A DNA stretch of 20,000 nt from an uncultured virus (IMG/VR IMGVR_UViG_3300012041_000021) (Duplodnaviria; Heunggongvirae; Uroviricota; Caudoviricetes). This document shows positions 4,370 through 17,991 of this stretch, piece after piece; the first letter of the stretch is position 1; each line of letters opens with the position of its first letter. The translations under genes and the position numbers were made by a program. The notes beneath the pieces are model-generated. The model ran no database searches, was not told where the DNA came from, and was given only the letters and a program-made list of their open reading frames with translations. The DNA lies in the IMG/VR virus record IMGVR_UViG_3300012041_000021; one strand, 5' to 3'.

Positions 4370-4625
4370 AGCGTATAGACACCGGAATAATCCACAGGAA
4401 AAACTTCTACATGACAAGTTTTTGGAACAATATATTAACGAAACTTATCTAGATTTTTTAATATTTCCTGCCGAAGATGGGGATGACGGTATGTTTATCT
4501 CCACCGACACATTAAGTAAAAGAGAACAGAAAATTGTCTTAAGTACGGTGCAATGGTTAGGTAGTCCTCTAGGTAGACAGTTTTTAAGTAGTTGCGGATA
4601 TAAATTAGAAAAAGATGGAGAATAA
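4356..4625 (+). CDS. Conserved-looking phage hypothetical protein
   Basis: 89 aa. NPQEK...STVQWLGSPLGRQFL resembles, from memory, a widespread phage family. Confidence 0.75.
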   Translation: MESFKAYRHRNNPQEKLLHDKFLEQYINETYLDFLIFPAEDGDDGMFISTDTLSKREQKIVLSTVQWLGSPLGRQFLSSCGYKLEKDGE

Positions 4626-4764
4626 ATTATGGGGAGTATATTCTCCCGAAGATGAACTATTAGCTGTTCACTCTACAGAAGATGGCGCAGAATTAAATTT
4701 CGGTAGATATTTAAGACAACATGGAGAAGGGTTTTACGTAGATATTGTTGTAGTGCATGACTAA
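4615..4764 (+). CDS. Small hypothetical protein (49 aa, not in ORF track)
   Basis: MENKLWGVYSPEDELLAVHSTEDGAELNFGRYLRQHGEGFYVDIVVVHD. Overlap-coupled on both sides. Confidence 0.65.
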   Translation: MENKLWGVYSPEDELLAVHSTEDGAELNFGRYLRQHGEGFYVDIVVVHD

Positions 4765-5883: not shown

Positions 5884-6063
5884 ATGGAAAATTTTGCAAA
5901 GAAAATAAGTAGTCACTTAACATCAGCAGACTATAGGCTAATGTGCACTAAAGAGGGGGTAGAGAATATTTTAAAAGGGTACGGATATCCTTTAAAAGTT
6001 GGAGAGTTGAATGACTCAAATTGGGAAGAGATTAGTAATATTTTAATAGATGGATGTCTTTAA
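5884..6063 (+). CDS. Small hypothetical protein (59 aa, not in ORF track)
   Basis: MENFAKKISSHLTSADYRLMCTKEGVENILKGYGYPLKVGELNDSNWEEISNILIDGCL. First ORF after a promoter. Confidence 0.7.
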   Translation: MENFAKKISSHLTSADYRLMCTKEGVENILKGYGYPLKVGELNDSNWEEISNILIDGCL

Positions 6064-6811: not shown

Positions 6812-7417
6812 ATGAGCTATATTAACGTAGAAATTTTAAAAAGTTTTAACCTTAGTCTCGTAGATTTAGGAGTCCTTCAACTTATCAAGCAGAACCGGAC
6901 TGAAAATATGTCCATGTCTTTACAATATCTTTTAGAAGACACTACAGATTTAGTTCGATATGAAGAAGAAAAACTTGTAGAATATGTAAACCCTAAGAAG
7001 AAGAGCGATAGTGTCTACAAATGCGTTAGAATAACTAAGAAGGGCAGTGATATACTAGACAGCATTGCCACTCCTGAAATTACACTTGGAGATGCTCAAA
7101 TGTTGGACTATCTTATCAATATGTACTTAGCACATGAAGATAAAGAACGAGTAGTTGGAAACAAGAAGAAGGTCGCTATGTACATCGCTATAATGCGTGG
7201 CAAATTGAACCTTACTCTCCATCAGTTCTTTTATCTGTGCGAGCTCTTTTTATCGGAACAAAAGTTTACCAAAAAATTAGAGAATATCTTCTTCGATTCT
7301 AATAAGAATAGATATGGAGATTTTAAAAATAATATGGAAGACAGCCCACTGTATCAATTCTACGATAGTAGGAAACTTGAAGTAGAACAATATTGGCAAC
7401 AAAAAATTAAAGAATAA
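6812..7417 (+). CDS. Hypothetical protein, possible replication initiator or helicase loader (winged-helix-like N-terminus)
   Basis: 201 aa directly abutting the helicase. The N-terminal half ends in VRITKKGSDIL, reminiscent of a wHTH wing (LTxKG). The function is inferred from position. Confidence 0.5.
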   Translation: MSYINVEILKSFNLSLVDLGVLQLIKQNRTENMSMSLQYLLEDTTDLVRYEEEKLVEYVNPKKKSDSVYKCVRITKKGSDILDSIATPEITLGDAQMLDYLINMYLAHEDKERVVGNKKKVAMYIAIMRGKLNLTLHQFFYLCELFLSEQKFTKKLENIFFDSNKNRYGDFKNNMEDSPLYQFYDSRKLEVEQYWQQKIKE

Positions 7418-8509
7418 ATGTTAAAAACAGGAAGAGAACTTACAAATGAAACAGTTGAAACAATTAGGAAATTCCAATCAGGAGTATTAAAACCTATTGC
7501 TACCGGAGTTACACACTTAGATGATGCCTTGATGTCCGGCTTGACTCCGGGCATCGTTGTAGGTATTGTTGGTCGAAGTGGTCACGGTAAGAGTTATGAT
7601 ATGGAGCGTATTCAACGGAATATCTTAAAAACACATGACGATGTTCTGTACGTTAACTGTAATTGGGAGCTCTCACATTTTAAATTACTTTTGAGGGACA
7701 TTTCTCAACGTACCGGAGATAATATAGGAAAGATTTTGTTTGAAATGCCCACAGATGCAAAGAGCGAAGAACTTGACCGGATTTTTGAAGATAATAGGAC
7801 AGAGAATGTACTGTATCAAAATGAACCTGTAACTCCTGACGTTTTCTCTCAAGACATAGAAGGTGTTATAAAAGCTAATCCTTTGAAAAAGATAGTAGTT
7901 GCAATTGACAACCTTGAAAATATCCTTATTTCTAAAGGCTCTCAAAAAGAATCTATGGACGCATTGTTGTATCAGGTTAACAGATTGAAAAATCTACATC
8001 CTTACATCTGTTTCATAGTTTTAAATCAAATGAATCAGAACTATCTTTTGAGAATGGACAATCCTAAGAATCAGCGTCCTATTGACAGTGATATTTACGG
8101 TTCTGACCAACTTTACAAGTTATGTGACGTATTGTATGTTAAACTGATTCCTTGGAAACTAGGTATCCATGAGAAATTTATGGTGTTTGGAAAGGACATG
8201 TATTCTTGGTTAGACGAACATAAATTAGTGGCGGGTAATACTGCAAGTTTTGACCCTTACGGTAAGGCTTTCTATTTTTATTTGAAAATGAGAGCAGTTA
8301 GGGATGACAAGAATGTTCAGGACATTCACATAGAAAAGTTATTTACTAGAGAGGGGTCAAATGCTCCTCAAAGACAGAATAATGTTACACCAACTTTCTC
8401 TCAAGTTCCGGTATTTGAATCTGCTCCGTTACCTACAGTGTCTTTAAATGACGCTTTTGGAACGAGCTTTCAGAATAAGGTAGAGGAGGGAGACACCAAT
8501 CCATTTTAA
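7418..8509 (+). CDS. DnaB-like (SF4) replicative helicase
   Basis: IATG..HLD, Walker A GRSGHGKS, Walker B VAIDNL, H3 LNQMN and H4 RPIDSDIYGSDQLYKLCD. No fused primase domain. Confidence 0.9.
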   Translation: MLKTGRELTNETVETIRKFQSGVLKPIATGVTHLDDALMSGLTPGIVVGIVGRSGHGKSYDMERIQRNILKTHDDVLYVNCNWELSHFKLLLRDISQRTGDNIGKILFEMPTDAKSEELDRIFEDNRTENVLYQNEPVTPDVFSQDIEGVIKANPLKKIVVAIDNLENILISKGSQKESMDALLYQVNRLKNLHPYICFIVLNQMNQNYLLRMDNPKNQRPIDSDIYGSDQLYKLCDVLYVKLIPWKLGIHEKFMVFGKDMYSWLDEHKLVAGNTASFDPYGKAFYFYLKMRAVRDDKNVQDIHIEKLFTREGSNAPQRQNNVTPTFSQVPVFESAPLPTVSLNDAFGTSFQNKVEEGDTNPF

Positions 8510-8511
8510 TT

Positions 8512-8781
8512 ATGAAAATAGATGATTTTATAGATGAATACGCTGACATGTCATGGATAGGCTATGGATGTGAAGGCTTGTATAGTAAAGAAACGGTTAA
8601 AATGATGCTCCAAGATTTACTCTCTTTGGCGGCGAAAAAGGCTGAAATAAAAGTACAAAAGAAATCAATGTACGGTAAAAACAGGAAATGGCAAAATGTA
8701 AAAGAAATGGAAATAGACCTATTTGATTGGGAGATTCAGCATTCAGTAGACAAGAGTAGTATTTTAAACATATTAAAATAA
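8512..8781 (+). CDS. Hypothetical protein
   Basis: 89-aa ORF, last gene before the terminator. Confidence 0.75.
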   Translation: MKIDDFIDEYADMSWIGYGCEGLYSKETVKMMLQDLLSLAAKKAEIKVQKKSMYGKNRKWQNVKEMEIDLFDWEIQHSVDKSSILNILK

Positions 8782-8810
8782 AAAACCCTCCTGATAAGGG
8801 AGGGCTCTTT
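8780..8810. terminator. Bidirectional intrinsic terminator between convergent genes
   Basis: AAAAAA-CCCTCC(T)-gataa-(G)GGAGGG-CTCTTT, between the stops at 8781 (+) and 8813 (-). Confidence 0.8.
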
Positions 8811-8812
8811 AA

Positions 8813-9031
8813 CTACATAGTGTACTGATTAGGGTCAACGCCTTTTTCTAAAAAGTAAGCTTGAAGCATCCAATACGCTTTTGCCATGTATTTCACATGT
8901 TCATCATCGTCTTTATCCTCTTCATACTCCTCTTCAGCGCAGTCCAAAGTCTTGTGAATTTGTTTGACAACCAAGTACTCACTGTGCTCCATAGGGAATT
9001 TTCTGAAAAACTCCGTAAAATGCATAGCCAT
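8813..9031 (-). CDS. Small acidic helical protein, second gene of the antisense cassette
   Basis: 72 aa with an acidic tract EEEYEEDKDDDEH. Starts 6 nt after the stop of the upstream minus-strand gene and ends at a terminator. Confidence 0.75.
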   Translation of the reverse strand: MAMHFTEFFRKFPMEHSEYLVVKQIHKTLDCAEEEYEEDKDDDEHVKYMAKAYWMLQAYFLEKGVDPNQYTM

Positions 9032-9037
9032 GATTCG

Positions 9038-9736
9038 TTAACTCTTTACATTCACAGGGTTAGCTGTTTGTGCAACTCCCGCCATAAGACCTCCTACATT
9101 GATGATGTCTTGACCTGCTTTAGCTACTTGGCTAAATACTGTGTCAAATCTTCTAATGTGGTCGAAGTCTCTTTGAGATTGAACTTGCGCTTGAGCTTGT
9201 AACTGTGCTTGTAATTGTGCATTACTGTTTGAGATAGCAATGTTGATGTCTTGACTGTCACCTCTTCTGTGAGAATGTGCCAATTGGTCACGTAATGCGT
9301 CGATTTCTGTCTGATTTATCTTGGCAAGTATCGCCGCGGTTTGGGCAGTTCCTGCTGACGCGATGTCGTCTAGGCGTTTATCGGTCAAAGCCGCGATTGC
9401 TTGCGCCTGTGCCGAAAGCTGCGCCGTATTTCGCTCGGCTTGAATTGCTTGGGCATAGAAGGAATTCATGTTTTGCTTTTCAGCTTCACATATGGCTGTG
9501 GCAATTCCCCTAGCTTCACTGACTGAAGTATCTTTGGCATTTCCAATAGCGGCGAGCAATACTGCCTGACCGTTGCAATCAGTGTCTTTTTTATGACCTG
9601 TAATGTCGCCAATTCCTAATAATCCTAAAAGTCCGAAAGGTGCGATACCTCCAAAACCTCCACCGAAGCCGCCTCCAAGACCTCCACTAAAACCTCCACC
9701 TAAAGCATTGTACTCGCTCGAATTTGTTAAACTCAT
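9038..9736 (-). CDS. Gly-rich hydrophobic N-terminus plus Ala/Gln-rich coiled-coil protein of unknown function (start revised from 9823 to 9736)
   Basis: 232 aa from MSLTNSSEY, with GGGFSGGLGGGFGGGFGGIAPFGLLGLLGIG followed by heptads. The upstream extension is AT-rich and contains a minus-strand -7 box. Confidence 0.85.
   Translation of the reverse strand: MSLTNSSEYNALGGGFSGGLGGGFGGGFGGIAPFGLLGLLGIGDITGHKKDTDCNGQAVLLAAIGNAKDTSVSEARGIATAICEAEKQNMNSFYAQAIQAERNTAQLSAQAQAIAALTDKRLDDIASAGTAQTAAILAKINQTEIDALRDQLAHSHRRGDSQDINIAISNSNAQLQAQLQAQAQVQSQRDFDHIRRFDTVFSQVAKAGQDIINVGGLMAGVAQTANPVNVKS
9647..9700 (-). repeat. Imperfect 12-bp-period tandem repeat encoding (G/S)GG(F/L) units
   Basis: + strand ACCTCCAAAACCTCCACCGAAGCCGCCTCCAAGACCTCCACTAAAACCTCCACC encodes GGGF-SGGL-GGGF-GGGF-GG. 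Confidence 0.6.
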
Positions 9737-9786
9737 GTTGTTTTTAAATTTAAAAATTAATAAATAGTTGTTGAAATATTTCGGGA

Positions 9787-9794
9787 CAAATTTA
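9787..9794 (-). promoter_or_regulatory. Minus-strand -7 box driving the antisense cassette
   Basis: CAAATTTA on + reads TAAATTTG on -, 50 nt upstream of ATG 9736. No good -33 TTTG at 20-nt spacing (TACG). Confidence 0.6.
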
Positions 9795-9826
9795 CGACAA
9801 TTATCTAAGTATCTCGTAATCATATA

Positions 9827-9842
9827 ATTATAGTACTATAAT
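9827..9842. promoter_or_regulatory. Perfect 16-bp palindrome, candidate operator for the adjacent XRE regulator
   Basis: ATTATAGT|ACTATAAT, located between the -33 positions of two divergent promoters. Confidence 0.55.
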
Positions 9843-9843
9843 A

Positions 9844-9875
9844 TTAGTTTTATTCCGGTAGAATTATTATCTTTG
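9844..9875 (+). promoter_or_regulatory. Promoter of the HTH gene
   Basis: TTAG (degenerate -33, 9844-9847), N20, TATCTTTG (9868-9875). Confidence 0.65.
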
Positions 9876-9894
9876 TATTCTAATTTTAAAAAAT

Positions 9895-10152
9895 ATGAGA
9901 AAAGATTTTGATGAAATCGACGTGAAGGAGGTAAAAAGACTGACTAAAGGGGAGTTGGAGAGAGTGGGTAAAAATTTAAAAGGGTTGAGAGTTAAAAACG
10001 GTTTGACTTTAAATGACATTAGTTTCTACACTTACAGTAATATTTCAACTGTAGAGAAATTAGAAGTTTCTAAGTTAGAGAATGTGACCTTATTAACTCT
10101 TATGAAGCTTTCGGTTTTTTATAGTATTCCCCTCAAAGATTTGTTTTTATGA
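9895..10152 (+). CDS. XRE/Cro-C1-family helix-turn-helix regulator
   Basis: VGKNLKGLRVKNGLTLNDIS....NISTVEKLE....NVTLLTLMKLSVFYSIPLKDLF matches the XRE HTH pattern. Confidence 0.88.
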   Translation: MRKDFDEIDVKEVKRLTKGELERVGKNLKGLRVKNGLTLNDISFYTYSNISTVEKLEVSKLENVTLLTLMKLSVFYSIPLKDLFL

Positions 10153-10157
10153 AATTT

Positions 10158-10190
10158 TCCTCCTCATTTATTTGCAGGAGGATTTTTTTT
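10158..10190 (+). terminator. Intrinsic terminator after the HTH gene, overlapping the next promoter
   Basis: TCCTCCT (10158-64), 11-nt loop, AGGAGGA (10176-82), then T8. Confidence 0.8.
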
Positions 10191-10202
10191 GTTATATATT
10201 TG
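10171..10202 (+). promoter_or_regulatory. Bacteroidota sigma-A-type promoter (perfect consensus)
   Basis: TTTG (10171-74), N20, TATATTTG (10195-10202). Confidence 0.8.
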
Positions 10203-10226
10203 CTGAAGAAATAAAAACTAAAAGAT

Positions 10227-10865
10227 ATGCCAAAAATAAAAACAGTTAAATTAAATTTTAATAGTATCGGATTAACGGATTATAGTTATTCTACTTTTAA
10301 AGGTCAATTACAGTATACTTTGTACTATGATGCTAAAGACGACTTTTTCTATTTTGATTGGAAAGAGATAAATAAAGACTTTGAAAATATAAATTATAAT
10401 CAAATATCTCAGTCAAGGTTCGGTCAATGTAGAACATATAGGAAAGCTTTAGAGTTATTAATGTTTACGATAGTTGAAGATAAAACTCTTGAAAAATATA
10501 TAGAGATTAAAATTACTGTAAACAAAACGGAAAAGTCTAATAAAGACACTGATATAATTTCAGTTGGGTCGAATTGGAAAGGTATTAATTTAGAGTTTAA
10601 AAGAATTTTCTTAGTGAGATGCGGGAACTTAATTGGTGTTCAGAATTGTCATAAAGATACTTGGATTGTAGAAAGTGACCCATATTTCACAAACGGTAAA
10701 CCAAAAAATCTAATACCGTACACAAATGAGACTTGGGATTTTTTAACAAATGTAGATAATAATATTAAAGCTTTAGGAGATTTAATTTACAACTTCTTTG
10801 ATGGTGATGTAGAACTGTTGGAAGATAAAATTAAAACTAGTGGTCAAATTTTATTAAATAAATAA
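10227..10865 (+). CDS. Hypothetical protein
   Basis: 212-aa ORF, first gene after a promoter. No motif recognised. Confidence 0.8.
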   Translation: MPKIKTVKLNFNSIGLTDYSYSTFKGQLQYTLYYDAKDDFFYFDWKEINKDFENINYNQISQSRFGQCRTYRKALELLMFTIVEDKTLEKYIEIKITVNKTEKSNKDTDIISVGSNWKGINLEFKRIFLVRCGNLIGVQNCHKDTWIVESDPYFTNGKPKNLIPYTNETWDFLTNVDNNIKALGDLIYNFFDGDVELLEDKIKTSGQILLNK

Positions 10866-10867
10866 CT

Positions 10868-11098
10868 ATGGAACTATCAGATTACGCAGTAAATAAAGAT
10901 GGGAGGTTGGTAAAAACCTTTAAGACACTTGAAGACAAACTTGTGTGGGGTGTTGGAGAATATGGACTTCTTCACGGAGTAGGTAGTTACTTAAGTCTAG
11001 GTATAAAACCTAGCAAGGGTGATTTTCACATCCTAGTTAAACCCACAGAAGATGATATCAATAAATATTACGAAGATTTAAACAGAGAATGGTTATAA
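10868..11098 (+). CDS. Hypothetical protein
   Basis: 76-aa ORF, tightly coupled to neighbours. Confidence 0.7.
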   Translation: MELSDYAVNKDGRLVKTFKTLEDKLVWGVGEYGLLHGVGSYLSLGIKPSKGDFHILVKPTEDDINKYYEDLNREWL

Positions 11099-11385
11099 TG
11101 GAAAAAAGAAATGAATATATAGAATCGGATGGTTTATATTATGAATCAGATACACACGAATGGTTTCACGATAAAGTAAGTACTAAGTATGCTAGAACTA
11201 ACAACGGTTTAAATAAAGATGCATTACCAAATATTTTTGCTTTTGTAACTAGAAATAAAGAGACAGGTGAGTACGACAGAGTGGTAATGGATAGTAAAAC
11301 TAACGAAATTATTTATGATACTAAAAGTTTGGAAGAACTTGCAGGTTTTATTGACAAATTGAAAATTTTAAAACGTTTTAAATAG
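11098..11385 (+). CDS. Hypothetical protein (start probably 11098, TAATG overlap)
   Basis: 95 aa from MEKRNEY. The ORF track starts at 11089. Confidence 0.75.
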   Translation: MEKRNEYIESDGLYYESDTHEWFHDKVSTKYARTNNGLNKDALPNIFAFVTRNKETGEYDRVVMDSKTNEIIYDTKSLEELAGFIDKLKILKRFK

Positions 11386-11387
11386 TC

Positions 11388-11585
11388 ATGAGTTTTATTG
11401 CGCCCGAACACTTAGGTAAGAAACCTTTCTACACTTGTAAAAGGATTCCTAGAAAACTTAAGAAGAAACATATGGAAGCCCTAAAAAGATTAAGCTTCTT
11501 AGATGTAAATGAAAAGTTATGGTTTATCTTAGGAGAGACTAATAGAGAATATAGAGATTTTTTAATTAATAAGATAGTAGAGTAA
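11388..11585 (+). CDS. Small basic hypothetical protein
   Basis: 65 aa with a KRIPRKLKKK motif. TAATG overlap with the next gene. Confidence 0.7.
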   Translation: MSFIAPEHLGKKPFYTCKRIPRKLKKKHMEALKRLSFLDVNEKLWFILGETNREYRDFLINKIVE

Positions 11586-11893
11586 TGAGAAAAAAGATAA
11601 CAGAATATTTTAAAGACATTTCATTAAATGATTGGGATGGAGAAACTTTTTGGAGTTTTAGAGCGTTTATCAACAATTTAGATATCCCCGACGAAGCAAC
11701 TATGAGTAACGAGTATGGAGAGTCATACGCTTCTATAAGTATTAGAAGAGACGAAACTGACGAGGAGTATGAAAAAAGATTAGATGACGAGTCTCGTAAA
11801 AGAGCTGCATCTTTACAGTATCAAGAAGAGAACGAGAAAAAAGAGTACGAAAGATTAAAAGCTAAGTATGAAAATGGAAGTAGAATGGAGTAA
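11585..11893 (+). CDS. Hypothetical protein with a charged C-terminal helix
   Basis: 102 aa. R.ETDEEYEKRL...EKKEYERLKAKYE pattern is frequent in phage small proteins (recognised from memory). Confidence 0.75.
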   Translation: MRKKITEYFKDISLNDWDGETFWSFRAFINNLDIPDEATMSNEYGESYASISIRRDETDEEYEKRLDDESRKRAASLQYQEENEKKEYERLKAKYENGSRME

Positions 11894-12032
11894 ATACAGT
11901 TCACAGTTACCTGTAGCAGAAGCTATTTACGCAAAGCTATTACCTGAGCCGAGAACAGCTAATGAGTTAGCTGACAGACATAATAAAGTAGGAAGTATAA
12001 TTAGATTAATTTTAGAAGAGCATGGAAAATAA
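11868..12032 (+). CDS. Small hypothetical protein (54 aa, not in ORF track; start may be 11874)
   Basis: MKMEVEWSKYSSQLPVAEAIYAKLLPEPRTANELADRHNKVGSIIRLILEEHGK. Fills the gap and overlaps both neighbours. Confidence 0.6.
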   Translation: MKMEVEWSKYSSQLPVAEAIYAKLLPEPRTANELADRHNKVGSIIRLILEEHGK

Positions 12033-13159: not shown

Positions 13160-15556
13160 ATGAATGACGCTTACATTATAGATATAGAGAGTTCAAATTT
13201 ATTGGCAAACATGTTAGATTATAGTAGCTTGCCTTACAAGTTAAATAGGGAAGCTAATCTGTGGTGTATTGTTATTAGAAATGTCGGGACTAACGAGGTT
13301 AAATATGCTGTTGAAGGGCAGATTACTAAAGAGTGGATGAAAGAGGCTCTAAAGGGCTGTAAATACTTAATAGGGCACAATGTATTGAAGTTTGACTTCT
13401 TGGTTTCTAAGCTTTTCGGTGTTTTAGATTATTCTGTTGGTTATTTAGATGAACCGGACACTTTGTTCGGAGAACCTGTAACTTTGATTGATACTTTAAT
13501 CCTTTCCCGGCTTTTTAATCCTGACAGACATGGCGGACATTCGCTTGAAAGTTGGGGACACCGGACAGGTACAAAATTAAAAACAGAGTTCCGAAAAATT
13601 TGTATTGAAAAAGGTTACATAACTAAAGACGAACCTAAAGGTGCAGAGTTCAGAAAGTACGTCCCGGAAATGTTAGATTACTGTATTGATGATACAGAAG
13701 TTAATAGGAATACCTTCTTAGCTCTAGTGGAAGAAAAAGGAGATTATAGCGGTTGGAATAAGGCTATTAAGATGGAGAATAAGTTAGCAGACTTAGCTAT
13801 CCGACGAGAAACTTTCGGTTTTTGGTTTGATAAGGATTCAGCTGTTAAGTGTGTTGAGGAGTTAACTGAACTTATGGAAGTACTTAGAAATAAAGTAAAT
13901 CCGGTTCTTCCTCCAAAGCCAATGACTAAAGGAGATTTGAATTCTTTTACTCCTCCGGCTACTCAATTTCTTAAAAGTGGGAAACCTTCTACTCACATTG
14001 TAAAGTTTGCGGCTAGAATGGGCGGGAGAATTGTGACAGATGATGAGAAGTATTACATAGAATTTGAAGGAAATAATTACGAGTTACCATTTAACCTTCC
14101 GTTAAAAACACATACAGAAGCGGACATCAGTAATCTTGACCACGTTAAGATGACTTTAACAGATGTTTACGATTGGATACCTACAGAATGGGCGGTCAGA
14201 GATTTTACTAAAGATAGTAAGAAACAAAGTTTAACTTATGAAAAAAGAGTTATAGCTTTTGAAAGATGGTTGAAGGAGACTCAACAAGGAAAATACACTG
14301 ACCTTAGACTTGACATAGCTTTTAAAGACCACAAAGTAAAATCTGTGGAAGATTTGGAGAGAAAGATTAAAGAGAAGTTACATGAAGATTACCCGGTAAA
14401 GTTGCCAACTTCTCCAAAAGTAAGAGTAGGTATTGAAAAGGATTTATGTCCGAACTTAACAGCTCTTGGAGATAAAGTAGAGTTTGCTAAAGACTTCGCT
14501 TTATTCTTAACTTATAAGCACAGAAAGTCATCCATTGCCGGAGGAGAGTTGGAAGATGTTGATTATGATGATGAATACCCAACTTCCGGTTTTCTTTCCA
14601 TGTATAGAGAAGAGGATTCGCGTATCCCTACTCCGGCTATTGAGATTGGAGCGTCTTCATGTAGATATAGGCACATTGGAGTGGCTAACGTTCCAAGAGG
14701 TACTTCTGTTTATGGTAAAGAGATGCGAAGTTTATTTGGGTCGGGTAAAGATGGAGTACAGTTAGGTTTTGACTTTGCCTCTTTAGAAGCTAGGATTCAG
14801 GGACACTATTGTTGGAAGTACACTGATGGAGAGGAATTAGCTAAAACATTACTTGCTGAAAAGCCTAACGATATTCACACATTAACAGGATTGAAATTAG
14901 GTATTCCTAGAAGTGATGCAAAGTCTGTGAACTACATGCTTATCTATGGCGGGAAGATTCCTAAAGTAGAAGCTATGTTAGGTGTAGATAAGCCAAGAGC
15001 TACAGAAATTTTTGAAGGGTTTTGGGATTCAGTCCCTTCTTTGAAAGAGTTGAAGGTAGCGGTCACTGAACATTGGAAAGCTAATGATAAGGTATGGATT
15101 GCCGGAATAGATGGTAGAAAGATTACTACTAGAAGTGAGCACAGTTTATTGAACGCTGCTTTTCAGTCAGCCGGAGTTATCGCTGCTAAGTATGTTACGG
15201 TTCTAATGATGCAGTATTTAGAGAAAGCGGGTTACAATTTAGACCCCTTTATAGCTGCTCCTGATGTATGTAGCATGATTGAATATCACGATGAATGTCA
15301 GCTTTTCTTGTCGAAAACTATACCTAAGTTTGAACTGTTTCCTTCTGAAGAAGAAGCTAAAGCGTTTATTAAGGGTTGGACAGGAGAAGGACAGTTAAGT
15401 GCTATTTCGGAAGGTAAGTCTTGGTATGTAGCTTTACCTAATGTTGTTTCTCTTGCAGTGGCAAAAGCTATTAAAGATACGGAAGTTATATTGAAATTGA
15501 ATGTTGAATTAGGTTACGAATGGATTGTTAGTAACACTTGGTACGGATGCCATTAA
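13160..15556 (+). CDS. polA: Family A DNA polymerase with a 3'-5' exonuclease domain (T7-like, no 5'-3' exonuclease)
   Basis: ExoI DIESS, ExoII GHNVLKFD, ExoIII YCIDD. Motif A DFASLEARI, motif B RSDAKSVNYMLIYG, motif C YHDE. C-terminal W...H. Confidence 0.95.
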   Translation: MNDAYIIDIESSNLLANMLDYSSLPYKLNREANLWCIVIRNVGTNEVKYAVEGQITKEWMKEALKGCKYLIGHNVLKFDFLVSKLFGVLDYSVGYLDEPDTLFGEPVTLIDTLILSRLFNPDRHGGHSLESWGHRTGTKLKTEFRKICIEKGYITKDEPKGAEFRKYVPEMLDYCIDDTEVNRNTFLALVEEKGDYSGWNKAIKMENKLADLAIRRETFGFWFDKDSAVKCVEELTELMEVLRNKVNPVLPPKPMTKGDLNSFTPPATQFLKSGKPSTHIVKFAARMGGRIVTDDEKYYIEFEGNNYELPFNLPLKTHTEADISNLDHVKMTLTDVYDWIPTEWAVRDFTKDSKKQSLTYEKRVIAFERWLKETQQGKYTDLRLDIAFKDHKVKSVEDLERKIKEKLHEDYPVKLPTSPKVRVGIEKDLCPNLTALGDKVEFAKDFALFLTYKHRKSSIAGGELEDVDYDDEYPTSGFLSMYREEDSRIPTPAIEIGASSCRYRHIGVANVPRGTSVYGKEMRSLFGSGKDGVQLGFDFASLEARIQGHYCWKYTDGEELAKTLLAEKPNDIHTLTGLKLGIPRSDAKSVNYMLIYGGKIPKVEAMLGVDKPRATEIFEGFWDSVPSLKELKVAVTEHWKANDKVWIAGIDGRKITTRSEHSLLNAAFQSAGVIAAKYVTVLMMQYLEKAGYNLDPFIAAPDVCSMIEYHDECQLFLSKTIPKFELFPSEEEAKAFIKGWTGEGQLSAISEGKSWYVALPNVVSLAVAKAIKDTEVILKLNVELGYEWIVSNTWYGCH

Positions 15557-15561
15557 AAAAT

Positions 15562-15600
15562 AAACCCCTTAAAGTTAATTCTTTTTGGGGTTTTTCTTTT
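15562..15600 (+). terminator. Intrinsic terminator after the polymerase
   Basis: AAACCCC (15562-68) pairs with GGGGTTT (15587-93), with inner AAAG/CTTT pairing, followed by a T-tract. Confidence 0.7.
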
Positions 15601-15619
15601 TTTATCCAATTTGTTTTTC

Positions 15620-15627
15620 TATATTTG
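15620..15627 (+). promoter_or_regulatory. Bacteroidota -7 box
   Basis: TATATTTG 18 nt upstream of ATG 15646. The -33 element is not clear. Confidence 0.6.
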
Positions 15628-15645
15628 CAATCTAAATAAAAAACT

Positions 15646-16257
15646 ATGAAAGTAAAAATATTAACAAGTTTTCCTAAGAAGACTTTTGAAGTGGATGAAG
15701 TTTGGTTCAGTGCCGACTTACACTTAGACCACGAATCTGTTATTAAACATGGACGTAAGTTTGACAGTGTAGTGGAAATGAACGACACTATCATTCATGA
15801 AATTAACAAAGTAGTTAGAGAGAATGATTTACTAGTTCTTTTGGGAGATACTTTGATGGGAGAGAAAGATTATGAAAGTTTCTTGAACTCTTTGAGATGT
15901 AAGTATGTTATCATGTTGTATGGTAATCATTGTAATATTGGTAAACTTCAATCAATTTGGTTAGAGAATACTAAGCTGCTTTATCAAGGGTATTATTTGG
16001 AACTTAATGTTGAAGGTCAAATTATTTGCTGTTCTCACTTTCCCCAATTTAATTGGAATTATCAGGACGATGGTAGTTGGAGTTTACATGGTCATTTACA
16101 TTCAGATGAGAATCCGGTTTTAAGAGAGATTCACAAATATAAGTCTATGGATGTGGGAATTGATAATTATTACAAAATGATGGGAGAATATGGTTTATTT
16201 TCCTTTAATCATGTGAAGCTTTTATTAAGAGATAATTTAATTATGAAAAGACATTAA
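15646..16257 (+). CDS. Calcineurin-like metallophosphoesterase
   Basis: SADLHLDH, LLGD, YGNH, SHFP, HGHLH and DVGID motifs. Confidence 0.92.
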   Translation: MKVKILTSFPKKTFEVDEVWFSADLHLDHESVIKHGRKFDSVVEMNDTIIHEINKVVRENDLLVLLGDTLMGEKDYESFLNSLRCKYVIMLYGNHCNIGKLQSIWLENTKLLYQGYYLELNVEGQIICCSHFPQFNWNYQDDGSWSLHGHLHSDENPVLREIHKYKSMDVGIDNYYKMMGEYGLFSFNHVKLLLRDNLIMKRH

Positions 16258-16261
16258 AACA

Positions 16262-16293
16262 CTTGCACATGTCATTTCCTTTTTATATATTTG
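16262..16293 (+). promoter_or_regulatory. Bacteroidota sigma-A-type promoter
   Basis: CTTG (16262-65), N20, TATATTTG (16286-93). Confidence 0.8.
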
Positions 16294-16326
16294 TCAAACA
16301 AAGAACGGAGTTCAAAAATCAGAAGC

Positions 16327-16701
16327 ATGGAAAAACTATTAACAAAGAAACAAGTCACAGACGAGGTTACTGCATTCATTAAAGCTTACCGGAAGAGAGA
16401 CGAATATGAATGTATGTGGCTTATTGACGATTTACAGATAGGCGACGAGTACTTTTTTGTAGAGGTAATACGAACACCTACAAGATTTAAAGACAAGATG
16501 TGTCAAGTTACAGGAGAGTGGTCTGAAATAAAAGTTGAAGAGGGTAAATTTAAATTAGAGATGTCTATATTTAAAGGAGAAGATGATGAAAATCCTGAAA
16601 ATCACAACCCTTCAATAAATATAGAAGGTAACACGACAACTGAAATTGCAGATTTCCTAGCTTTCGAGTATCACAGACGAATTTTAAAACGAGTTAAATA
16701 A
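16327..16701 (+). CDS. Hypothetical protein (start revised from TTG 16291 to ATG 16327)
   Basis: The TTG at 16291 is part of the -7 box, so it cannot be in the transcript. 124 aa from MEKLLTKK. Confidence 0.75.
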   Translation: MEKLLTKKQVTDEVTAFIKAYRKRDEYECMWLIDDLQIGDEYFFVEVIRTPTRFKDKMCQVTGEWSEIKVEEGKFKLEMSIFKGEDDENPENHNPSINIEGNTTTEIADFLAFEYHRRILKRVK

Positions 16702-16707
16702 AACAAC

Positions 16708-17010
16708 ATGAAATTAAAAAACAAAGTATCAGTAAATCTTGATTGGGATGGAGATACAGCTTCTTTAACAGAAGAAAGAGTAGAAAAATTAATTGACGGG
16801 GGATTGGTAGACTTTACTTTAGAGGTAGAAGTAGAAGAGAAAACATATCGTAGTGGTTCACATGATTTACCGGACGATGTGGAGGTTGTTGTATCGCATA
16901 TCGCAATATCAGATGTTAGAGTTTTTGACCGAGATGATGAAGAAGTTTTCTTGTCAGATATTGAAGTTTATGAAATGGGAGAACATATTCGTGAATCAAT
17001 TATATTCTAG
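16708..17010 (+). CDS. Highly acidic hypothetical protein
   Basis: 100 aa, about 27 D/E versus 10 K/R. Confidence 0.8.
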   Translation: MKLKNKVSVNLDWDGDTASLTEERVEKLIDGGLVDFTLEVEVEEKTYRSGSHDLPDDVEVVVSHIAISDVRVFDRDDEEVFLSDIEVYEMGEHIRESIIF

Positions 17011-17444: not shown

Positions 17445-17705
17445 ATGGAAAGAATAGATAATGTTTATGAAGTCACTAGGAGACTTTTAGGAATAATTGA
17501 CCCTGCGGGGGACGCTTCTGTAGATGGTATTAGATTTGAGAATTTAGAACAGACTATTGACTTAACAGAAAGTTTAATGGCGGATATCATTTATGTAGCA
17601 AGACATAAAGGTCATTATGCTAATTCAATGAATATTGCAGGTGAAAGAGCAGATAAATTTATTAACGAGTTAAGAGAAATGATAATTGATGGAAAAGAAA
17701 GATAA
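17445..17705 (+). CDS. Hypothetical protein (start revised from 17352 to 17445)
   Basis: 86 aa from MERIDNVY; starts 1 nt after the stop at 17443. Confidence 0.75.
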   Translation: MERIDNVYEVTRRLLGIIDPAGDASVDGIRFENLEQTIDLTESLMADIIYVARHKGHYANSMNIAGERADKFINELREMIIDGKER

Positions 17706-17991
17706 GGTTATTTACGTATTAATGGGTTTGGTTTTTGTACTACTTTTGCTTCTCTTTTGGCGACAAGATACGTTTGAAAGCCGAGTAGACGAGTATAAGG
17801 GGAGTATAGACACTTTGAAACAAACAGAGAAAATATTACGAGAAAAAGTAGATTCTTTTAGCGTGAGGATTGATGGGACTAAAACTGTCATTAACAATAT
17901 TCACGTAGAAAAAGAAAAAGCAGTTACAAATGTTAAACAATTAAAAAATGACCAATTGCAAGGTTGGTTTACGAATAGATATGGAAAATAG
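17689..17991 (+). CDS. Membrane-anchored coiled-coil protein (i-spanin/Rz-like architecture)
   Basis: N-terminal TM helix VIYVLMGLVFVLLLLLFW, followed by a coiled-coil soluble domain. Confidence 0.6.
   Translation: MEKKDKVIYVLMGLVFVLLLLLFWRQDTFESRVDEYKGSIDTLKQTEKILREKVDSFSVRIDGTKTVINNIHVEKEKAVTNVKQLKNDQLQGWFTNRYGK

Follow-up and report, generated by a model that had tools for sequence, protein, structure and literature searches.

A three-gene cassette, conserved and separately punctuated, in an uncultured phage and its relatives

Introduction

Phages carry morons and superinfection-exclusion genes, among them imm and sp of T4, sieA of P22, and bor and lom of lambda. In a stretch of 20,000 nucleotides (nt) of DNA from an uncultured virus of the Caudoviricetes (IMG/VR record IMGVR_UViG_3300012041_000021; the whole stretch is hereafter the window), a gene for an 85-amino-acid (aa) helix-turn-helix (HTH) regulator of the Xre/Cro type stands divergent from two leftward genes, which encode proteins of 232 and 72 aa and which we call large and small. 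Like the morons, this cassette has its own promoter and terminators, an orientation opposite to its surroundings, and a placement at module boundaries near tail-fibre or lysis genes, and of two related phages one has it and the other lacks it. It differs from the morons named in having no relation to them in sequence or fold, in having carriers that seem to be lytic, and in bringing its own regulator. We regard it as a self-regulated phage accessory cassette, which is a known kind of element, with effector families that are novel.

The regulator invites comparison with the controller (C) proteins of restriction-modification (R-M) systems. Like C.AhdI, C.BclI and C.Esp1396I, it is a small single-domain HTH protein with palindromes beside its own promoter, and its presumed role is likewise the timing of a gene that is not to be expressed freely. 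Unlike the C proteins, it has no restriction or methylase gene nearby, the genes it would regulate are divergent from it rather than downstream, it carries an extra N-terminal extension of about 20 residues, and its DNA binding is only predicted.

Other described systems bear on the leftward pair. T4 fibritin is a fibrous coiled-coil virion protein and T4 gp57A is a fibre chaperone; the pair resembles these in having a long helix without a break, a short C-terminal element that is conserved, a partner that is small, acidic and helical and, in several loci, tail-fibre neighbours, and it departs from them in its lack of homology, its Gly-rich hydrophobic head, its private regulator and, in the window, its placement in a replication region. 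The likeness to intermediate filaments, which have a Gly-rich head and a coiled-coil rod, is one of composition and layout alone; vimentin was the sole Foldseek row for large in the PDB, and at an E value of 5.6 it is not significant and was set aside. The lambda spanins Rz/Rz1, as described in an excerpt of PMC6139136, offer a further parallel, in that large has a hydrophobic N-terminal segment, a long helix and cysteines, with a small second gene directly downstream and, frequently, a lysis neighbourhood. Unlike Rz/Rz1, however, the small partner is not a lipoprotein, the hydrophobic segment is no clear membrane helix, and separate spanins coexist with the family.

Results

Three genes conserved in a fixed layout

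An earlier note, made from the letters of the window alone, had proposed that these genes form an autonomous unit. Large occupies 9038..9736 and small 8813..9031, both on the minus strand, and the regulator gene occupies 9895..10152 on the plus strand. The reading frame of large is open from 9823; we assign the gene to 9038-9736 because its homologues begin at the ATG at 9736 (an MSL... start), and the -7 box of the leftward promoter described below falls inside the longer open frame. The start codon of small lies 6 nt past the stop of large. A greedy set of non-overlapping open reading frames (ORFs) contains 43 on the plus strand and three on the minus strand of the 20-kb window. The third minus-strand frame (17712-17897, 61 aa) is nested in a longer plus-strand ORF and is probably spurious, and the claim that large and small are the only minus-strand genes among about 50 is thereby upheld.

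When the phage collection was searched at the protein level with large, one record was returned, that of Flavobacterium phage FL-1. The genes are arranged there as in the window, an 85-aa HTH gene facing away from genes of 251 and 65 aa, with identities to the window proteins of 30% (HTH), 35% (large) and 40% (small); the FL-1 homologues lie at 15533-16863 of its record. Just two of the 87 ORFs of FL-1 run leftward according to its genome paper, and by their coordinates these two are the homologues of large and small. At the DNA level the cassette had no match in 50,697 phage records.

Additional loci were taken from viral contigs, metagenomes and one genome bin, and profiles of the three proteins served to label their ORFs; L006-L009 and L023, being duplicates, were left out, and L003, L004 and L019, which are one phage type, were counted separately. 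A divergent XRE gene lay upstream of the large homologue in 19 of the 20 loci with at least 450 nt of upstream sequence, and small, or a small-like paralogue, lay downstream in all 18 loci with at least 500 nt on that side. The interval from the stop of large to the start of small, 6 nt in the window, is 2-7 nt in six relatives (L001, L002, L004, L011, L012 and L016). The earlier note would have abandoned its module had homologues of the three genes proved not to co-occur; their fixed layout, also in cultured FL-1, bears the module out for this near branch of the large family, and the claim does not extend to a distant branch, described below, which occurs without this XRE and without this small partner. 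Judged by these comparisons and by the flanking signals considered next, the cassette is real, conserved and separately punctuated.

Individual loci vary in detail. The sole locus without XRE, L018, has instead an 84-aa protein (4451-4705) on the same strand, ahead of the large gene, with a hydrophobic N-terminus, a coiled-coil tail and a match to phrog_6179 (4.8e-6); a similar 82-aa protein precedes the family member of L043. At its contig end L018 carries, in addition, a truncated small gene. Four loci have a paralogue of small, 136-144 aa long, between large and small (L014:3128-3538, L015:5639-6058, L026:5654-6085 and L028:770-1204), the N-terminal half of which is small-like (weak profile matches, 1e-4 to 1e-10) and the C-terminal half Tyr/Pro/Gly/Arg-rich and of low complexity. 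A second partner family of 94-106 aa (KTPQQI...FIxTKEG), which we call middle, takes the same place in L013:172-471, L022:3234-3518, L027:4080-4400 and L044:5187-5471. The large gene of L014 (2134-3125) is in two ORFs of 140 and 132 aa with the central part missing, for which a frameshift, decay of the copy or an error of sequencing could account. The 3193-bp contig L013, with small and middle at its left end and the large gene running into its right end, is probably circularly permuted or wrapped.

Terminators, promoters and palindromes

The signals that the earlier note had drawn around the genes, namely two hairpins, a 16-bp palindrome and two divergent -7 boxes, were, like the ORFs, all recovered in place or within a few bases. 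The leftward two-gene unit ends in a terminator hairpin (8779..8811, minus strand) with a 13-pair stem followed by a T-run. The minus-strand fold of 8775-8815 reaches -17.8 kcal/mol (z score -4.85, with 0 of 200 shuffles as good) and a U-run follows it. This hairpin also stands after a plus-strand 89-aa gene, and the same interval folds on the plus strand at -12.8 kcal/mol (z score -3.35) with a weak U-tract. The proposed bidirectional terminator is thus clear for the leftward unit, and its bidirectionality is arguable, given the weaker plus-strand fold and weak U-tract.

On the other side, the XRE unit closes with a plus-strand hairpin and T8 at 10158..10190, which had been predicted in the earlier note and which was found by folding (-13.0 kcal/mol and a z score of -3.36 for 10150-10195), though not flagged by a pattern scan for hairpins. 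Just past it, at 10195 and 24 nt ahead of the next gene (212 aa), stands a TATATTTG box, which leaves the XRE unit insulated at this end as well. Comparable boxes lie 15-27 nt ahead of the genes at 5884, 13160 and 15646; from their sequence, these boxes and the one at 10195 are likely Bacteroidota-type middle or late phage promoters. Contigs of other organisms from three sequencing runs (X2, X3 and X4) match window positions 10152-10211 at the terminator hairpin alone and then continue into unrelated sequence, and the hairpin sequence is therefore more widespread.

The Bacteroidota promoter consensus is TAnnTTTG, and by this motif we located a -7 box on each strand between the divergent genes. 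The rightward XRE promoter has TATCTTTG at 9868..9875 (plus strand), 19 nt ahead of the XRE ATG, and the leftward promoter has TAAATTTG at 9787..9794 (minus strand), approximately 50 nt ahead of the ATG of large. Upstream of the large gene, all 8 relatives that were aligned have a TAAnTTT[GA] box, an invariant TTATTAA and an A/T palindromic run ahead of the ATG.

Between the two promoters lies a perfect 16-bp palindrome, ATTATAGTACTATAAT (9827..9842, unstranded), which is a candidate XRE operator. A palindrome-like element, GATAAT(A)TAATATC, occurs at the equivalent place in L011, L012, L014 and L015 and less clearly in FL-1; in these five relatives it sits where the -33 region would be expected. 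A second perfect 16-bp palindrome, TTTTTAAATTTAAAAA (9741..9756, unstranded), is directly upstream of the start codon of large, and relatives have a similar AAAATTTAAAA run ahead of the large-gene ATG. The FL-1 genome paper proposes TAAAA as a ribosome-binding region, and the palindrome at 9741-9756 may be a region of this type rather than an operator. There are three perfect 16-mer palindromes in the 20-kb window, two of them (9741 and 9827) in this 158-bp intergenic region; first-order Markov simulations of sequence gave a mean of 0.48 such palindromes per 20 kb. The intergenic palindromes appear improbable by chance, with the operator role a candidate one.

The encoded proteins

The family profile of the regulator matched 37 solved Xre-type proteins at E values up to 1e-3, led by C.AhdI (3.2e-13), SinR (1.3e-10), C.BclI (2.7e-10) and then C.Esp1396I. 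HTH_3 was found in 16 of 17 cassette regulators (best 4.9e-11); the window regulator alone fell under the Pfam cut-off (HTH_26, 18.3 vs 22 bits). Its PADLOC matches were weak (HTH_VI, 5e-5; Control_protein, 0.0019). Profile matches thus place the regulator in the Xre/Cro-C1 HTH class (Pfam HTH_3 clan). No nuclease or methyltransferase gene adjoins it in the window and none was seen beside it in the relatives; by context it is not an R-M controller, as there is no R-M operon.

In large, a weakly hydrophobic head rich in Gly and Phe is followed by a single helix of about 160 residues and then by a C-terminal tail that is conserved, a layout drawn from alignments, hydropathy and AlphaFold2 (AF2). 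The head (residues 1-52; GGGFSGGLGGGFGGGFGG then IAPFGLLGLLGIG) is Gly/Phe-rich around a hydrophobic core of about 11-13 residues, with mixed or positive charges on the C-terminal side of this core and no basic residue ahead of it. The best 19-residue Kyte-Doolittle mean is 1.56 (family median 1.38). The hydropathy of the head is borderline, and it is from this head that we infer a possible membrane role. In distant relatives a Gly-flanked hydrophobic core of 10-13 residues follows hydrophilic N-terminal regions of 40-300 residues, which speaks for a cytoplasmic protein whose knuckle dips into the membrane or self-associates, and against a signal-anchor. The Gly-zipper that the earlier note had read here describes composition alone, as GxxxG is unavoidable in a Gly-rich run and no Pfam match was obtained at E values up to 0.01.

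AF2, run with 96 sequences, modelled residues 1-52 as disordered, 53-211 as a single helix and the tail as disordered, with a predicted template modelling score of 0.34 and a mean predicted local distance difference test score (pLDDT) above 90 in every 10-residue block of residues 71-160; this predicted picture would be usual for a coiled coil that forms only as an oligomer. Conservation in the alignments is highest in polar motifs along the helix, in an invariant Q-x-Q-x-Q ladder and at the C-terminal end, where the tail motif QDIINVG...QTANPxNVK has the family form QD(I/V)(I/V)N-G...Q...N/Q-V-K/R. The hydropathy period is 3.7 overall and 2.0 in residues 160-211; these periods would fit coiled-coil or beta-rich oligomer segments without choosing between them. 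Longer family members contain extra copies of an R-R-x-D...E-I-x-I-x-N...Q-A-Q unit, and the family has two fairly conserved cysteines.

Neither Pfam (E up to 0.01) nor NCBIfam or PADLOC (E up to 0.1 or 0.01) contained a match to large, and its PHROG match was a weak one to a family of unknown function (phrog_16490, E 0.0014). When 18 family members were compared with PHROGs, none matched a family with a tail, head or lysis annotation, and the weak matches were again to families of unknown function; the expectation that the 232-aa protein is not a characterised structural protein is borne out by these libraries. A word-indexed search with large found 100 unnamed relatives. A profile search of 1.84 billion representatives gave 395 family matches at E<=1e-3, 148 at <=1e-10 and 43 at <=1e-30 (counted as representatives clustered at 50% identity), and a Pfam scan of 40 members (E up to 0.001) left 39 without any domain. 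The metagenomic protein P0122 (578 aa) joins a pectate-lyase-like tailspike domain (PF12708, 7.2e-11) to the C-terminal 135 residues of the family; it is 1 of the 395 representatives and could be a true fusion or a chimeric assembly. A match of the family profile to CCDC6 in the PDB (0.0045) was set aside as coiled-coil noise, and the ESM Atlas returned just unnamed viral clusters, with no usable named match.

Small is acidic, with a net charge of -8, and is modelled by AF2 (pLDDT 91.5) as three helices, a short one and a helical hairpin. It begins MAMHFTEFFRKFPMEH, in which we read no hydrophobic signal and no lipobox, the o-spanin lipobox consensus being that given in the excerpt of PMC6139136; on its partner, large would accordingly not be classed as a spanin. 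A mode of working similar to that of spanins, or of C proteins, would be compatible with a small protein that has no lipobox and a regulator that has no R-M operon. Foldseek found no match to small in the PDB at E values up to 0.001, and the small-family profile found none there below 0.03. A BFVD search returned a single protein of 65 aa and 38% identity (E 0.016), presumably the FL-1 homologue, and the VIA wide structure search reached a best Z of 6.6, in the range usual for helical models. Pfam, PADLOC and NCBIfam gave no match (E up to 0.1 or 0.01). The cassette genes were not described in the literature that we found on the FL-1/FCL-2 lysis regulator, Gly-rich coiled-coil lysis-cassette proteins, FL-1/Ficleduovirus or phiPLPE gp38. 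By these searches, the two leftward proteins belong to undescribed families.

Genomic position of the cassette

The earlier note had suggested comparing close relatives for presence or absence, and FL-1 and FCV-1 provide such a pair. A portal homologue is present in 142 phage records, 79 of them from Flavobacterium phages, and the large gene is present in FL-1 alone. FCV-1, with a portal 50% identical to that of FL-1, continues from it with four small genes and an M15 lysin and has no XRE, large or small; FL-1 is about 3.4 kb longer at this portal-lysis place, cassette included. FCV-1 gp12 was considered as a hidden XRE and rejected (hhalign probability 0.1%). From this comparison, the cassette is accessory in at least the FL-1 lineage.

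An endolysin or holin PHROG match lies within about 1.5 kb of the cassette in 9 of 18 near-branch locus types (L001, L004, L011, L012, L013, L015, L016, L021 and L022); for comparison, we estimate roughly that a site picked at random in a 45-kb genome would have a lysis gene within 1.5 kb in about 10% of cases. The lysis genes are downstream of XRE (L001, L011, L013 and L015), downstream of small (L004) or convergent with either. In L004 a single strand reads large, small, three small genes and endolysin. In L002, L005, L014, L018 and L020 the flanking genes are of virion, tail or baseplate type, and L029 has no informative neighbour. Flanking replication genes are confined to the window, L026 and L027; in L026, a 78.7-kb contig, the cassette occupies the same site as in the window, directly after a DnaB-like helicase gene. 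The earlier statement that the module interrupts the replication run thus describes the window and these two loci and does not hold generally, the cassette elsewhere adjoining lysis or tail-fibre genes, in most cases where the two groups meet; placement among replication genes is a local accident of this phage lineage. The sole match from genome collections, L016 (52,952 bp, titled as a Legionellaceae metagenome-assembled genome), has endolysin and PAPS-reductase genes and is probably a phage binned with a bacterium.

A tyrosine integrase was found in 0 of 3 records, namely FL-1 and the IMG/VR records G001 and G002 (one of which is 100% complete with terminal repeats), and serine recombinases were not searched. 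Judged by gene content, the carriers are apparently lytic.

The window itself has a G+C content of 33.8% and resembles part of a phage genome. Its replication genes include a DnaB-like helicase (7418-8509) and a family-A DNA polymerase (13160-15556), the latter about 50-55% identical to polymerases of Edwardsiella, Acinetobacter and Cellulophaga phages, and Pfam and PHROG matches identify ThyX, MazG and a phosphoesterase among its products. The sole hint of lysis in the 20 kb is a 101-aa ORF (17686-17991) with a weak match to an Rz-like spanin PHROG (phrog_739, E 0.00099). Contigs from four DNA sequencing runs are identical to 7000-12000 where they cover it; none spans the cassette, and they are uninformative on its presence or absence.

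A distant branch of the large family

More distant members of the large family (alignment A5) occur in viral contigs of 28-61% G+C. Profiles of this XRE and this small protein found no match in the distant-branch loci (L044 belongs to the near branch). The distant member is mostly followed by a gene of about 70-130 aa, and several of these follower genes (L038-L041) share the motif F-x-x-T-x-[DE]-G with the 94-106-aa middle protein of the near branch. We also considered whether the long N-terminal regions of P0193, P0241 and P0167 are a fused small or small-like partner; there was no significant similarity, composition alone being common to them, and the idea was dropped.

Lysis genes are near the family member in 5 of 14 distant-branch loci (L031, L037, L041, L042 and L043), tail-fibre or fibre-assembly genes in L034, L038, L039 and L040, and helicase genes in L030, L033, L035 and L036. 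A separate Rz-like spanin is already present in L031, L037 and L041. One strand of L037 reads endolysin, Rz-like spanin, a 64-aa gene and the family member; the 64-aa product (L037:4507-4701) is Cys-rich and matches a translational regulator PHROG (phrog_6417, 2.6e-6).

Cultured carriers of the distant branch are Iodobacter phage phiPLPE, Acinetobacter phage At2 and Pararheinheimera phage KLER1-1. The phiPLPE protein gp38, labelled "putative tail-fiber protein", belongs clearly to the family (hhalign 99.8%, E 2.3e-30). The phiPLPE record has the remark "confirmed by MS" (mass spectrometry) on gp34 and gp35 and not on gp38, the label of which is an unverified annotation, and the portions available of two later dwarf-myovirus papers do not mention gp38. 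The neighbouring gp37 was considered as a hidden XRE and rejected.

Discussion

Our preferred explanation, which we hold tentatively, is that this is a self-contained, self-timed accessory effector cassette of Bacteroidota phages that acts at the cell envelope late in infection; on this view the cassette stands outside the core machinery of replication, virion structure and lysis. The C-protein-like regulator of 85 aa would bind as a dimer to the palindrome between the promoters and would thereby set the timing and strength of the leftward operon, as C proteins delay a dangerous gene. The operon would make a self-associating rod, in which the hydrophobic head, rich in Gly and Phe, is joined to a helical stalk about 24 nm long, the Q-ladder and the conserved tail. 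Its second product, the acidic three-helix small protein, the start of which 6 nt after the upstream stop suggests translational coupling, would keep the rod soluble or inactive, or would cap it. The rod would work from the cytoplasmic side of the envelope and late in infection, most likely in lysis timing or in the exclusion of superinfecting phages, because its head is hydrophobic, neither protein has a signal peptide, and lysis and tail-fibre genes are the habitual neighbours. The boundary next to such genes is a known hot spot for accessory genes, and the private regulator, together with the repeated occurrence of the cassette as the sole backward unit, points to a function timed apart from the rest of the infection programme.

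Several observations weigh against this explanation. The hydrophobic core of large is short (about 11-13 residues), charged on its C-terminal side and internal in distant relatives; it does not look like a canonical membrane helix, and action at a membrane would be a guess. No lysis gene was recognised in the 20 kb of the window, the best candidate being the weak Rz-like match (E 0.00099), and in relatives the lysis genes vary in orientation and in the side of the cassette on which they stand, which fits an insertion hot spot as well as a shared function, and a boundary hot spot at least as well as a shared operon. The distant branch does without this XRE and small partner, phiPLPE gp38 is labelled "putative tail-fiber protein" and lies within a structural block, and in P0122 a tailspike-like domain is fused to the C-terminal third of the large family. 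In addition, the locus counts are not phylogenetically independent.

The main rival reads the pair as a fibre of the virion and a chaperone. Large would then be a trimeric coiled-coil fibre (whisker, head or side fibre), or an internal protein ejected into the host envelope, and small its assembly chaperone. We consider this possible, if doubtful. Such a fibre might be built on a helix that runs unbroken for about 160 residues and on repeats of varying copy number, the Q-x-Q-x-Q ladder and the period-2 hydropathy of residues 160-211 could be beta-structure in an oligomer, and the strongly conserved C-terminal tail could nucleate oligomers. Neighbours point the same way in L013, L014, L027, L034, L038, L039 and L040, which have tail-fibre, fibre-assembly or baseplate genes nearby, and near L011 and L018 lie long proteins of the unannotated phrog_17273, 22899 and 3649 that we read as fibre-like. 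However, a dedicated repressor-like regulator, a backward orientation and private terminators would be unusual for a virion gene, the cassette stands among replication genes in the window, L026 and L027, and FCV-1, a relative of FL-1, does without it. The two direct links to fibres are themselves qualified, the gp38 label being unverified and without the MS note, and the P0122 fusion being 1 of 395 with a chimeric assembly possible; no tail or head PHROG appeared among the 18 family members.

We think it unlikely that the rod is an integral lysis protein (a holin, an antiholin or a spanin-type envelope disruptor) with small as its inhibitor. The proximity of endolysin or holin genes in half of the near-branch locus types, the gene orders of L004 and L037, the two fairly conserved cysteines, and a hydrophobic N-terminal segment ahead of a long helix, as in the i-spanin Rz of the PMC6139136 excerpt, are what such a protein would predict. 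Small, however, without signal peptide or lipobox, is not an o-spanin, and L031, L037 and L041 already have an Rz-like spanin of their own. The hydrophobic stretch also appears too short for a standard membrane helix and has no N-terminal positive charges, no lysis gene could be recognised anywhere near the window copy, and the family has no lysis PHROG.

It is improbable that the pair is a toxin-antitoxin or abortive-infection-type system under XRE control, in which a toxic rod would be neutralised by small. Tight linkage, an acidic small partner, an XRE regulator and a patchy distribution are in keeping with such a pair, and so are the weak PADLOC matches, which concern the regulator only. 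Against it, large and small have no match in PADLOC, Pfam or NCBIfam, a helix of about 160 residues without an enzyme domain is unlike known type II toxins, and the carriers are apparently lytic, with no tyrosine integrase in the three records. An equally long shot is that large is a phage cytoskeletal or condensate scaffold, with a keratin-like Gly/Phe-rich head, a Gln ladder and a coiled-coil rod about 24 nm long, self-assembling at the inner face of the membrane; the XRE switch and the small acidic cap would then control the timing of an assembly that organises late infection. Low-complexity segments rich in Tyr, Pro, Gln and Arg do occur among the proteins concerned, in the tail of the small-like paralogue (L014, L015, L026 and L028), at the N-terminus of the partner in L039 and L040, and in the N-terminal regions of P0193 and P0241. 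Least credible of all is a lysis-lysogeny or carrier-state switch with XRE as Cro and the leftward genes as the maintenance arm: divergent promoters around palindromes do resemble an immunity region, but neither leftward protein has a DNA-binding domain and no tyrosine integrase was found in FL-1, G001 or G002, serine recombinases not having been searched.

The large family is widespread though named in no library, with 395 representatives at 50% identity on contigs of 28-61% G+C. Should the rod prove to be a virion fibre, it would be an unusually regulated one, and if the scaffold account were true, it would be a new kind of phage-encoded cell-organising element. FL-1 is in culture together with its host, Flavobacterium sp. 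B183, which makes the cassette directly testable. Flavobacterium phages are being developed against fish pathogens, and should the cassette govern lysis timing or exclusion, as in our preferred explanation of a self-timed accessory effector, a missing piece in the knowledge of their late functions would be supplied.

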